In this document: positions 10,369 to 55,530 of the stretch, in pieces | How positions within the stretch are numbered: position 1 is the stretch's first letter | Layout of the letters: each line of letters begins with the position of its first letter | Origin: Patescibacteria group bacterium | GTDB lineage: Bacteria; Patescibacteriota; Patescibacteriia; UBA2196 | Assembly: GCA_036845805.1 (NCBI GenBank) | Contig: DAIUDD010000001.1 | Span: forward strand, 169,594 to 231,328 | DNA: 61,735 nt | Direction of reading: 5' to 3' | Program-made: the position numbers and the translations under genes | The notes under the pieces: generated by a model | Told to the model about the DNA's origin: nothing | The model's database searches: none | What the model saw: only the letters and a program-made list of their open reading frames with translations

Positions 10369-10845
10369 TCATTCATAAACCAACAAATTAATATCGTAAA
10401 ACGAGTTTGGGACGACAATATAAATAAATTTTTTCGCAGAAATGGAGATTAGTCGCAACCTTGATAAGGAATAATCCGGTGCAAACTTGATTAACTCCTT
10501 TGACTGGTTGCTCGGCGAACTTTCTTTTCTAAAGATAAGTTTGCCCCTATTGAGCATGGGTATTGGTGCGCTTTCTCTAGTCGCATCAATGCTAATCTCC
10601 AGTTCTGTGGAAAAAATAATAAGAAAGAGCTATAATATAATTGCCAAAAGTTGTGGATATGTTCTTTTGTAAATCCAACCGTTAGGTTTAACAGTAACTT
10701 TGGCCTCAAAAAGCTGCCTACCAAATCTGAACCCCGAAGACAACAAAAAAATCTCTCTTCTCAAAGTTCTGATAACTATCAGGACAAAACGTCTCTGGAG
10801 TTCATGGTCGGCAGCTTTTTGATTTATTTTTTTAAAAGTCATCAT
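10369..10845 (-). pseudogene. Hypothetical 158-codon frame interrupted by one TAG (10630-10632)
   Basis: ORFs 10630..10845 and 10369..10557 share a frame and the 24 codons between them are open. Confidence 0.3.
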
Positions 10846-10925
10846 AACAAAAAACCCTCTTTTGATTGTCTCAAATAGAGGGTTTTGTTAAATGTTGGTT
10901 AGCTCCATAAAGTCGCTCCTCTAAT

Positions 10926-11108
10926 TTATTTTTCTCCCCTGAAACGATAACCAATTTTCAAAGGATTTCGGTAAGTACCGCCATAAGCACCAGAAAATCT
11001 TTTATCCGGTACCTTTTTCTTGCGTCTATGCGGTGGCAAATAGTGATAAATTAAAAATTCTACCCGCTTCCGCATCAAACGCCCGCGAGAAATGTTTTGC
11101 CTGCACAT
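10926..11108 (-). CDS. Small very basic protein (60 aa)
   Basis: AAGGAGGTG Shine-Dalgarno just upstream of ATG 11108, directly after the prmC stop. Confidence 0.5.
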   Translation of the reverse strand: MCRQNISRGRLMRKRVEFLIYHYLPPHRRKKKVPDKRFSGAYGGTYRNPLKIGYRFRGEK

Positions 11109-11123
11109 TTTCACCTCCTTTCT

Positions 11124-12113
11124 TTAAAGGTGCTGCTTATATTTTATCATAATCAAACGATTTTGGCCACTTAAATCTTTTTTAAATTCAATTTTTGCCA
11201 ATGGTAAATATTTTTTGATTAACTTACTAATGCCCAATTTTTGCTCTGGGCCAATTTCTAAAAAGATAACCACACTTTTAAATTTGGAAATTGTATCTTG
11301 TTTCTTGGAAATTAATTCTTTTATTTGTTTTAATAACCTTCGATAATATTTTAACCCATCTTTACCAGCCAACAATGCCCGTGAGGGTTCAAATTTTAAA
11401 TTTTGATAATTTTTTTTATAAATACTCTCTGATAAATAAGGAAGATTGGCAGTCAAAATAATTGATTTATGATTTAAGAATAATGATTTAGAAATATTTT
11501 CCAATAAATCACTTTTAATAAATTTAATTTTTTTATCAACATTATGTAATTTGGCATTATTTTTTGCCACTGCCAAAGTTTTATCAGAAATATCTATTGC
11601 TAAAATCTTAAATCTTAAATTATAAATCTTAAATCTTTTTATTAAAGTTATTGGTATGCATCCACTGCCAACTCCTACATCAATAATCAGACAATCCTGA
11701 CACTCTGATACTTTGACGCTTTGACACTCTGACACTACATTATCCACCATCAGTTCTGTTTCTGGTCTCGGCACCAGCACTTCTTTATTAACTAAAAATT
11801 TCAAGCCATAAAATTCTTTATAACCTAAAATATATGCCACTGGTTCACCCTTAACCCGCTGTCTAATCATTTTTTTATATTTTAGTTCTTGGTTATTAGT
11901 TATTTTCTTTTCTGGATGTGCATAAAGAAAGGCTCTATCAATCGACCCCCTCTCCTTAAGTGAAAAACCGCCAGTGGCAGATTGAACGAAAGGGTTGGGG
12001 TGAGGTTTATTTAAAACTTCACTTAACAAAATCTCTGCATCTAAAACAGGCGAAACACTGTCCGCCTGTTTTAAAATTTCTCTTGCCCACATTAATACTT
12101 GGCCTATTGTCAT
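11124..12113 (-). CDS. prmC: Release factor glutamine methyltransferase, with repeat-derived insertions
   Basis: GEPVAYILG..FYG, VLVPRPETE, DVGVGSGCI, NLPY; downstream of prfA. Confidence 0.95.
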   Translation of the reverse strand: MTIGQVLMWAREILKQADSVSPVLDAEILLSEVLNKPHPNPFVQSATGGFSLKERGSIDRAFLYAHPEKKITNNQELKYKKMIRQRVKGEPVAYILGYKEFYGLKFLVNKEVLVPRPETELMVDNVVSECQSVKVSECQDCLIIDVGVGSGCIPITLIKRFKIYNLRFKILAIDISDKTLAVAKNNAKLHNVDKKIKFIKSDLLENISKSLFLNHKSIILTANLPYLSESIYKKNYQNLKFEPSRALLAGKDGLKYYRRLLKQIKELISKKQDTISKFKSVVIFLEIGPEQKLGISKLIKKYLPLAKIEFKKDLSGQNRLIMIKYKQHL

Positions 12114-12134: not shown

Positions 12135-13178
12135 TCAGACATCTGCTTTTTTCAAACTCTCAATTATTTTACCTATCCCGCCATCCATAATAGTTGTCAA
12201 ATTGTGCCACGATTCTTTAATTCGATGATCAGTCACCCGATCTTGCGGAAAATTATAAGTTCGAATTTTTTCACTTCTGTCCCCAGTGCCAATTTGTGAT
12301 TTTCTGTCCGCCGAAATTGCTTGCCGTCTTTTTTCTTCTTCTTGTGCTAGCAGCCGCGAACGCAACACTTGCATTGCCTTTTCTTTATTTTGCAGTTGTG
12401 ATCGTTCGTCTTGACACGACACTACTAAACCGGTCGGTAAGTGGGTGATGCGTACTGCTGAATAAGTGGTATTAACCGATTGCCCGCCATGTCCGCCAGC
12501 ACAAAAAGTATCTATTTTTAAATCCTTAGCATTAATTTCTACATCAACCTCGTCTGCTTCCGGTAAAACCGCTACGGTCACCGCCGAAGTATGTACGCGT
12601 CCGGCTTTTTCGGTTTCTGGCACCCGCTGCACCCGGTGCGTGCCGCTTTCATATTTCATCAAACCATAAACATTTTGGCCATTGATTTCAAAAATTACTT
12701 CTTTAAAACCGCCAATCCCAATGCGGTTACTATCAATTAGTTTAACTTGCCAGCCCATCCGTTCGGCAAACCTTGAATACATCCGAAACATTTCTGCAGT
12801 AAATAAAGCTGACTCATCACCACCGGTGCCCGCCCTAATTTCCACAATCACGTCTTTTTTATCTAACGGATTTTTTGGTTGAAAATATTCTTGTAAAAAT
12901 TTCTGCTTTTCTTTTATTATTTTTAAAATTTTTTCTTTTTCTTCCTCGGCCAATTTTAATAATTCTCTATCTTTTTCTGTGGCCAATATTTTTTCATTCT
13001 CTGCCATTTTATTTTGCCATTTTTTTTCTTCTTCCAATACTAACAAAACCCCTTTTAACTCACTATATTCTTTTGATAAGGCGGTATACTTTTTAATGTC
13101 AGCTAAATTTTCCTTATTTTGTAAGCTTATTTCCAAGTCTTTCAGTTTATTTTTTAAATTTAAAATTTTTTCTTCCAT
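12135..13178 (-). CDS. prfA: Peptide chain release factor 1
   Basis: [12 protein letters not shown] (PxT), RIRAG-like [24 protein letters not shown]. Confidence 0.98.
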
Positions 13179-54798: not shown

Positions 54799-54927
54799 TT
54801 AAAAATAATCAAGAAACAAGATACAATTTCCAAATAAATTTCAAACCTCAAATTTCAATTACTAAATTTTTTGGTTATTGATTATTGTTTGGAAATTGGA
54901 ATTTGTATCTTGGAAATTTATTACTTT

Positions 54928-55530
54928 ATGTCTCATCCCAAAACAGAACGCACCTTAGTTTTAATCAAACCCGATGGTGTGCAGCGCTCGCTCATTGGTG
55001 AAATAATTCACCGCTTAGAAAGAACTGGCCTTAAACTGGTGGCTGCTAAATTTATTATGGCCACCAAAGAGCAGGGCTATGAACATTATAAAAAAGAAGA
55101 AGATTGGCTCGAAGAAAAAGGCGCCAAAAGAATTACCCAAAGGCAAGCTGAAGGTAAACCAATTGAAAAATCAGCCCGTGAATATGGCCTCGATATTGTT
55201 AATGCTAATGTCAGTTTTATTACTGCTGGTCCAATTGTGCCGATGATCTGGGAAGGAAATAAAGCGGTGGGTATTATTAAAAAAATTGTCGGCGGCACCG
55301 AACCTTTAACTTCCGACGTCGGCACAATCAGGGGCGATTTAACTATGGATTCTTATGATATTTCGAATTTAGACGAACGTTGCGTCCGTAATCTTATTCA
55401 TTGCACCGATGATCCAAAAGAAGCCGCGCGTGAAATAGCGATTTGGTTTAAACCAGAAGAAATTTTAAATTATCGTCTTCTTAATGAAGCTATTCTCTAT
55501 GATATTAATCTAGATGGCATTAAAGAATAA
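54928..55530 (+). CDS. ndk: Nucleoside diphosphate kinase (long form)
   Basis: ERTLVLIKPDGVQR, GTIRGD, RNLIHCTD; start at MSHPK. Confidence 0.93.
   Translation: MSHPKTERTLVLIKPDGVQRSLIGEIIHRLERTGLKLVAAKFIMATKEQGYEHYKKEEDWLEEKGAKRITQRQAEGKPIEKSAREYGLDIVNANVSFITAGPIVPMIWEGNKAVGIIKKIVGGTEPLTSDVGTIRGDLTMDSYDISNLDERCVRNLIHCTDDPKEAAREIAIWFKPEEILNYRLLNEAILYDINLDGIKE

Follow-up and report, generated by a model that had tools for sequence, protein, structure and literature searches.

Small-repeat arrays and a GC-rich element read in frame in the variable loops of a patescibacterial PrmC

To our knowledge, the in-frame colonization of housekeeping proteins by small DNA repeats is a textbook phenomenon only for Rickettsia. 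Here we describe repeats of two classes within prmC, the gene encoding the release factor N5-glutamine methyltransferase, of a Patescibacteria group bacterium. The gene lies in a 61,735-nucleotide stretch that was analysed as a whole (hereafter the window), corresponding to C1:169594–231328 of a 773 kb, 13-contig genome with a GC content of about 36%. Its closest named protein matches come from Patescibacteria, Kuenenbacteria among them. Among the systems that resemble it, the STRR heptanucleotide tandem repeats of heterocystous cyanobacteria are reportedly the subject of work by Mazel et al. from 1990. STRR repeats are found inside the RNase P RNA gene (PMC2858038). The Rickettsia palindromic elements (RPEs), which were described by Ogata et al. 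(2000, Science 290:347; summarised in PMC10969869), are approximately 100–150 bp long, form their own sequence families and occur in Rickettsia only. The BoxC/PIT/TMECO class II intrastrand-triplex repeats are built from 37 nt units, and in E. coli they invariably lie between genes (Holder et al. 2015, PMC4666352). Each class II unit is ordered as pyrimidine arm, loop, purine arm, loop and G-rich third domain, the last being able to form G.G-C, A.A-T or T.A-T triads antiparallel to the purine arm (PMC4666352).

We consider it likely that the gene described here is a working prmC whose five most variable surface loops consist of the two small-repeat classes of its genome. These are a GC-rich family with a "hairpin plus mirror tail" architecture and AT-rich tandem arrays of heptamers or octamers. 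An earlier reading of the bare sequence (the original prediction) had listed five repeat-derived features in this gene, and all five were recovered in place and above chance. Its statement that each is an in-frame insertion holds for a part of them, as described below. The features are given here in window coordinates, with the strand where one was assigned and with the Tandem Repeats Finder (TRF) results for the three arrays detected by that program; SAM denotes S-adenosylmethionine.

11282–11320: heptamer array TTGGAAA TTGTATC TTGTTTC TTGGAAA TTAATTC in the C-terminal loop, encoding ISKKQDTISKF
11463–11490: heptamer array of the TGATTTA type in the pre-NPPY loop, encoding SKSLFLNHKS (TRF: period 7, 4.0 copies, 71% matches)
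11603–11637: heptamer array, AAATCTT five times, in the post-SAM loop, encoding KRFKIYNLRFK (TRF: period 7, 5.0 copies, 85% matches)
11697–11736: octamer array, CTGACACT five times, in the pre-SAM loop, encoding VSECQSVKVSECQD (TRF: period 8, 5.0 copies, 81% matches, consensus CTGACACT)
11946–12005, minus strand: GC-rich "hairpin plus mirror tail" element of 60 nt, in frame, encoding PHPNPFVQSATGGFSLKERG (alignment, model, nhmmer)
11958–11984, minus strand: small nested hairpin of 27 nt in the loop of the GC-rich element (blastn-short, sequence comparison, architecture script)
54808–54920: intergenic palindrome of inverted heptamer arrays between ychF and ndk, whose left arm (54810–54835) is the partner of a 26-mer in prmC

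The prmC gene and the lengths of its loops

The open reading frame (ORF) at 11124–12113 on the minus strand encodes a genuine PrmC. It is intact in the ORF list and specifies 329 residues. The protein scores 213.1 bits against the TIGR03534 equivalog model (curated cut-off, 199.1) and 67.7 bits against the Pfam family PrmC_N (PF17827; 23.4), the latter match being split in two by an insert. A PDB search with the protein matched the HemK/PrmC crystal structures by sequence. The AlphaFold2 (AF2) model, with a mean predicted local distance difference test score (pLDDT) of 91 and a predicted template-modelling score (pTM) of 0.88, contains the two-domain PrmC fold, composed of a helical N-terminal domain and a Rossmann methyltransferase domain. 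In Foldseek superpositions, the target-normalised TM-score of the model is 0.90 with 2b3t_A, the E. coli PrmC of the RF1 complex, and 0.85–0.87 with 1nv8. The catalytic (N/D)PPY motif reads NLPY at residues 223–226 (window 11445–11456, codons 220–223 region). All four residues, Asn223, Leu224, Pro225 and Tyr226, are invariant in an alignment of 22 sequences comprising the closest patescibacterial orthologues. In the set of 120 sequences, Asn223 and Pro225 are invariant, and Leu224 and Tyr226 are at least 90% conserved. From these alignments, NLPY appears to be a clade-wide variant of the PrmC catalytic motif.

The genome is a metagenome-type assembly of 13 contigs, which leaves room for the notion that the repeats were spliced into prmC by misassembly or binning. 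This explanation is effectively refuted, since the identical 990 nt gene is present on seven metagenome contigs from six samples (ENA, JGI and Logan); moreover, no stop codon interrupts the frame, and the modelled structure has the fold of PrmC. No copy-number polymorphism inside prmC was detected among the seven contigs. Their identity reaches into all the flanking DNA, so the populations are nearly clonal and the agreement is uninformative on selection.

The PrmC protein was aligned with 21 and then with 119 orthologues (42–59% identity), and the lengths of the five loops were compared with the orthologue medians, in residues.

N-terminal site: 25, median 3
Pre-SAM loop: 20, median 18
Post-SAM loop: 18, median 19
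Pre-NPPY loop: 16, median 18
C-terminal loop: 22, median 16 (six residues longer)

Residues 37–58 (nt 11940–12005) have zero occupancy in the 119 orthologues, and the alignment identifies the GC-rich segment 11946–12005 as a clear insertion of 20–22 residues. Residues Lys270–Lys277, which are exactly the codons under the 26-mer, have low occupancy in the 120-sequence alignment, consistent with a modest insertion of approximately 6–8 residues in the C-terminal loop. The other three segments fill variable loops that are common to the orthologues, with no meaningful gain in length; the pre-SAM loop is approximately 2–4 residues longer than in the orthologues. For these three, alignment with pre-existing loops is the outcome that the original prediction had named as its refutation. 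Accordingly, the five insertions of the original prediction reduce to one clear and one modest case. The location that it assigned to them, in surface loops, agrees with the model, in which the segments lie in coil or low-confidence surface loops. The 20–22-residue insert is modelled as coil with a pLDDT of about 50 between the helices 22–34 and 60–65, the C-terminal loop with the 26-mer is coil with a pLDDT of about 71, and the other three array loops are positioned at helix ends or turns with pLDDT values of 80–94.

A GC-rich repeat family and the sites that tolerate it

The segment 11946–12005 had been described as a palindrome. A repeat element does occupy this position, but it is a degenerate GC-rich hairpin element and not a simple palindrome. 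Its order is CCCTCTCCTT, the 27 nt nested hairpin, AACGAAAGGG, TT and GGGGTGAGG, and its RNA fold is weakly better than those of shuffled sequences (z = −1.8). The segment is far from the genome composition and has 18 relatives in the genome. Short-word blastn and an nhmmer profile placed the family at 19 loci in total, 12 of them inside ORFs. An intergenic copy at C5:11594–11636 contains the nested hairpin too (95% identical across 43 nt). The canonical unit, ACCTCACCCC-AA-CCCTCTCCTT-nnnn-AAGGAGAGGG, has a length of 37–40 nt, and a doubled form of 81–83 nt begins with ACCTC and ends with GAGGT. On the opposite strand, the canonical unit reads as a pyrimidine arm and a purine arm separated by a loop, followed by TT and a G-rich mirror image of the purine arm. 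According to an architecture script, six canonical copies form 9–10 of 11 stem pairs and 7–10 valid purine-motif triads out of 9–10. The prmC copy forms 8 of 10 stem pairs (two mismatches) around a 27 nt loop, with 7 of 9 triads. Judged by this order of domains, the family has the sequence architecture of the BoxC/PIT/TMECO class II intrastrand-triplex repeats.

Besides prmC, at least eight conserved genes of this genome read the GC-rich family through in frame. Double elements are present in frame in UvrB, UvrC and GltX, and single elements in Fpg, FolD, RsmA and a TIGR00375 protein (NCBIfam). This distribution bears out the likeness to RPEs proposed in the original prediction. No target-site duplication is visible at the uvrB, uvrC and prmC junctions compared with empty sites, and no linked transposase was observed.

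The loops of PrmC have received inserts repeatedly. Inserts at the N-terminal site occur in 12 of the 120 orthologues, with comparable numbers at each of the four other loops. Within the order, 4 of 23 genomes carry N-terminal-site inserts, representing at least three unrelated sequences. One of them, the prmC of genome G004 (locus L005), contains a double element of the GC-rich family at the same N-terminal site and in the same frame as ours. The best PrmC tree pairs our genome (G000) with the insert-less G006 at 77% support, and a clade of G000 and G004 is not rejected by the approximately unbiased (AU) test (p = 0.17). Several peptide signatures recur in loop inserts of PrmC. Among the 120 sequences they include VIPAQAGIQ, CLAGRQA, SPLSKGRRGG and LDSRFRGND, and long inserts in patescibacterial orthologues such as P0010, P0043, P0053, P0013 and P0004 show CHSRPVSPYRGTGQAPYGVNSSGNPEKNFLNPDFRQDD, LDSRFRGNDM, VIPAQAGIQ, GYPPLSKGRRGGVV and CLAGRQA. 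By their sequences, these peptides resemble what a number of further GC-rich repeat families would encode.

A similar pattern is observed in UvrB, where the loop between RPTGLxDPEVxxxPI and SQIEDLL holds a different in-frame insert in each of five genera and none in four further genera. The insert of our genome is a double triplex-type element (C3:33157–33238), while those at loci L042, L043, L045 and L048 are three other GC-rich hairpin elements and a 34-residue heptamer-array insert. Frequent insertion, with survival restricted to tolerant loops, would produce such a pattern; a target preference is the alternative.

The recurrence of N-terminal-site inserts in 12 of 120 orthologues, together with the unchanged insert on the seven metagenome contigs, could also be taken to mean that the 20–22-residue segment, perhaps together with the other loops, extends PrmC adaptively, for instance to contact release factors or a ribosome specific to the Candidate Phyla Radiation (CPR). 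We regard this as very improbable. From lineage to lineage, the inserts at this site have unrelated sequences and lengths, the insert in our protein is predicted to be disordered, and its sequence corresponds to a DNA element that recurs in unrelated proteins and in intergenic DNA. Furthermore, the identity of the seven contigs includes their flanks, and nearly clonal populations say nothing on selection.

Tandem arrays, a shared 26-mer and an inverted repeat

The second repeat class is abundant throughout the genome. TRF detected 1292 arrays, compared with approximately 460 in a control simulated from the genome with an order-5 Markov model, and 209 versus 10 at scores of at least 50. The most enriched periods are 7, 8 and their doubles. 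Intergenic DNA is over-represented for arrays, yet about half of all ORFs hold at least one. By array density, prmC ranks approximately sixteenth among the ORFs with at least three arrays, and it is therefore not unique in this respect. Loci of 23 related genomes contain 1.74 arrays per kb, a density similar to that of our genome, with the same periods (48 versus 4 in the control at scores of at least 50). Array abundance is a property of the order. Unit-sized indels do arise in a natural population, as illustrated by metagenome contig L017, which lacks 7 nt (a heptamer) just downstream of prmC.

Identical array units recur at different loci of the genome. The octamer array of prmC (AGTGTCAR) is also carried, in the same frame, by a tsaB-like ORF (C1:34309–34764), where it is located at C1:34598–34629 and translated as ESKCQSVKVSKCQG. 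A third, short copy of this octamer array is present at C7:881–904.

The array in the C-terminal loop exhibits a more specific relationship. Positions 11282–11307 are the exact reverse complement of 54810–54835 over 26 nt, as had been noted originally, and none of 100 dinucleotide shuffles of the window produced such a match, even with up to three mismatches. The genome-wide count of the 26-mer that had been called for was run and yielded two sites only in the 773 kb, namely prmC and the spacer at 54810–54835. The 17 nt core TTGGAAATTGTATCTTG of the 26-mer has six genome copies, and, of the five others, four belong to heptamer arrays in intergenic DNA that immediately precedes a gene. The spacer region 54800–54930 is a long imperfect palindrome (DNA fold z = −3.59, none of 200 shuffles as good). 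The variant GTATCTTGTTTCTTG is common to prmC and the ychF–ndk spacer and is absent from the other four core copies. This shared variant points to a recent exchange between the two sites, which may have proceeded in either direction. A repeat-derived, in-frame segment that shares 26 nt with an intergenic array is thereby confirmed for this core enzyme, but the sharing does not bear out a transfer from non-coding DNA into the gene.

A more conservative explanation would be that nothing moved, and that low-complexity, AT-rich coding sequence in a genome of 36% GC acquired arrays by slippage in place, with coincidental similarities elsewhere. Three of the five segments show no net gain in length, and the Markov controls produce low-score arrays at about one-third of the observed number, as this explanation would have it. 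It is nevertheless distinctly improbable, given that the exact 26 nt identity is never reached in shuffles, that the octamer array recurs in tsaB in the same frame, that strong arrays exceed the control by 209 to 10, and that the GC-rich segment differs from the genome composition and belongs to a family.

The two heptamer arrays of the pre-NPPY and post-SAM loops had been taken for separate captures. They are instead the two arms of one inverted repeat (I1), in which 11464–11489 and 11603–11628 are inverted complements at 22 of 26 positions (85%). The arms bracket approximately 110 nt encoding the conserved strand–helix–strand core that follows the SAM motif. The same two loops were extracted from 22 genomes of the order, and the DNA of P0013, P0002 and P0006 was added, resulting, with our gene, in 26 orthologues in all. 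Complementary arms are present in five relatives: L002 (29/34), L040 (25/27), L007 (16/18), L065 (P0013; 25/28) and L066 (P0002; 28/33). The pairing in P0013 had been predicted from the peptide before its DNA was seen. In these five and in our gene, each complementarity score was reached by 0–2 of 500 shuffles, a null that destroys the tandem structure and is hence lenient, so that a cross-species matrix provides the fairer control. In that comparison, arms of three unit types (GAATTAT, TGTATAA and GATTTAA) pair within a genome and never across types. Arm complementarity is not significant in the other 20 of the 26 orthologues (19 of the order's 22 genomes and P0006). At least three of the five arm-bearing relatives belong to other genera of the order, and the six orthologues span at least four genera. 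The spacer between the arms stays at 103–133 nt among them. In a position-by-position alignment with type A, both of our arms show one and the same change, GAATTA to GATTTA, in several of their units. The mirrored unit changes and the pairing within types suggest that the arm pair is old and has evolved in concert. Either selection for a helix or templated correction between the arms would produce this pattern.

Selection is the basis of a further alternative, in which the arms form a functional nucleic-acid structure and the protein loops merely carry them. Such a structure could be a long-range mRNA helix (for example a ribonuclease III or translation-control site) or an intragenic segment that is inverted between ON and OFF states. 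The persistence of complementary arms in six orthologues of at least four genera, with three unit types, changes mirrored in both arms and a spacer that stays within 103–133 nt, speaks for this alternative. Moreover, the arms take part in the minimum-free-energy fold of the 211 nt arm-region RNA (−33.1 kcal/mol; z = −1.8; matched by 5 of 200 shuffles). We consider it unlikely on balance. Both arms are kept in only 6 of the 26 orthologues, the z-score of the fold is weak with no RNAalifold consensus, and templated correction from arm to arm gives the same pattern without a function. Inversion of 11464–11628 creates five stop codons and could only switch prmC off, whereas all seven metagenome contigs carry the ON orientation with identical prmC DNA.

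Other pairs of arrays occur in related genes. In the prmC of L004 (G001) and L030 (G010), the complementary pair involves the pre-SAM and post-SAM loops, with scores of 16 and 13, and brackets the SAM-binding GxGxG segment. In L005, the pre-SAM and C-terminal loops hold direct copies of one octamer array (CAATTAAC/AATAAACA), which match at 31 nt, a value that none of 300 shuffles equalled; L038 is a weaker case. Arrays in different loops of one gene can therefore be direct as well as inverted copies.

In the neighbourhood of the gene, prfA (12135–13178) lies directly upstream on the same strand and is preceded by rpmE, forming an rpmE–prfA–prmC run. The next ORF after prmC, at 10926–11114 on the minus strand, encodes 62 residues rich in arginine and lysine and has a strong ribosome-binding site. 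The deletion in L017 (GAATTTT, window 11054–11060), on a contig otherwise identical over approximately 2.9 kb, shifts the frame of this ORF, which is either dispensable or non-coding, or subject to a natural knock-out there. Among known RNA families, the only match was a candidate GcvB RNA at 10839–11020 on the plus strand, outside prmC, and it was rejected (Rfam score of 21 bits, gathering score 42, E = 0.047). The sub-threshold match overlaps the small basic ORF on the opposite strand and is probably due to chance.

Proposed process and relation to known systems

We infer the following process for the entry of the repeats into prmC. A 60 nt GC-rich copy with its nested 27 nt hairpin would have entered the N-terminal domain in frame, between its helices 2 and 3, adding approximately 20 disordered residues. 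The AT-rich arrays of 7 or 8 nt units make up the other four loops. Among these, the C-terminal-loop array may have recently exchanged 26 nt with the intergenic palindromic array, adding approximately 6–8 residues, and the pre-SAM-loop array shares its unit and reading frame with the tsaB array. The remaining two arrays represent the arms of an old inverted repeat, kept complementary by concerted evolution while their unit sequence changes between lineages. Such events could have occurred by insertion or by ectopic templated copying (gene conversion or template switching), combined with replication slippage. Purifying selection would then keep only the in-frame, stop-free copies in permissive loops. 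The loop peptides themselves are probably passengers.

Several observations weigh against this account. The nearest orthologue is only 53–59% identical and the collections contain no close relative whose site is empty, which leaves the insertion events undated and not directly observed. For the shared N-terminal element of G004 and our genome, one old insertion and a site preference both fit, and the protein tree does not decide between them. Neither element class has an identified target-site duplication or an associated enzyme. For the inverted repeat, in addition to the leniency of its shuffle null, arrays at distances of 20–320 nt genome-wide show no excess of inverted over direct partners (5 versus 5 at scores of at least 14), and, taken by itself, the prmC pair therefore reaches only modest significance in this genome. 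Applied to seven orthologues, RNAalifold gave −1.4 kcal/mol and no position-fixed consensus, missing the arms because their register differs between lineages, and a conserved consensus RNA of the arm region is not claimed here.

A more far-reaching interpretation, which we treat as a minor possibility, is that the paired heptamer arrays are a nucleic-acid device conserved in the order and that the arrays and triplex-type elements constitute a general loop-rewriting mechanism of the CPR. If so, a DNA or RNA helix bracketing the methyltransferase core would have two loops of this essential enzyme as its own. This helix would stay complementary as its sequence drifts and could serve in mRNA processing or translation control, or else work as a prmC switch of an invertible or recombinogenic kind. 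The arrays and triplex-type elements would rewrite surface loops of housekeeping proteins, possibly driven by small nucleases.

In the passenger account that we prefer, the locus probably represents an RPE-like colonization of permissive protein loops by other element classes in another phylum. The same behaviour is now seen in a free-standing CPR lineage with two element classes. It would explain part of the odd length variation of CPR proteins and their peptides of the "PHPxP...KERG", "VIPAQAGIQ" and "CLAGRQA" types. Repeat-derived peptides of this kind matter for the annotation, alignment and structure prediction of CPR genomes, and the comparison of orthologues identifies permissive loops in PrmC and UvrB. 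In addition, inverted arrays that co-evolve within coding sequence offer a concrete case in which templated mutation might be separated from selection on nucleic-acid structure. A limited literature search found no papers on such repeats in CPR proteins.

Compared with RPEs, the repeats described here likewise lie in frame in unrelated housekeeping genes of a reduced genome, with additional intergenic copies, and the added peptide segments occupy sites compatible with the fold. In contrast, the elements are 37–83 nt long, have the hairpin-plus-mirror-tail form and belong to Patescibacteria. They are not members of an RPE family, so the likeness is one of behaviour, with no sequence kinship expected. 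Small non-autonomous repeats with terminal inverted repeats are similar in that they reside inside genes and are read through as peptide. However, their terminal inverted repeats are well defined and usually accompanied by target-site duplications; here no such duplication was seen, and the double elements have ACCTC and GAGGT at their ends. The BoxC/PIT/TMECO repeats share the order of domains, a unit of approximately 37 nt, the multi-copy and G/C-rich character, and the occurrence of inverted tandem pairs. Unlike their strictly intergenic E. coli counterparts, 12 of the 19 loci here lie in ORFs, and at least nine of these are in-frame copies within conserved genes. The copy in prmC is degenerate, with two stem mismatches and its 27 nt nested loop, and any triplex here would be a prediction from sequence architecture. 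The AT-rich arrays resemble the STRR repeats, which also constitute genome-wide tandem families of 7 nt units tolerated in a variable part of an essential gene product. They differ in phylum and in unit; here they occupy protein-coding loops, 8 nt units are common too, and the arrays form inverted pairs. Among these systems, the feature that is new here is the inverted complementarity of the two prmC heptamer arrays, which recurs in five orthologues with two other unit types.

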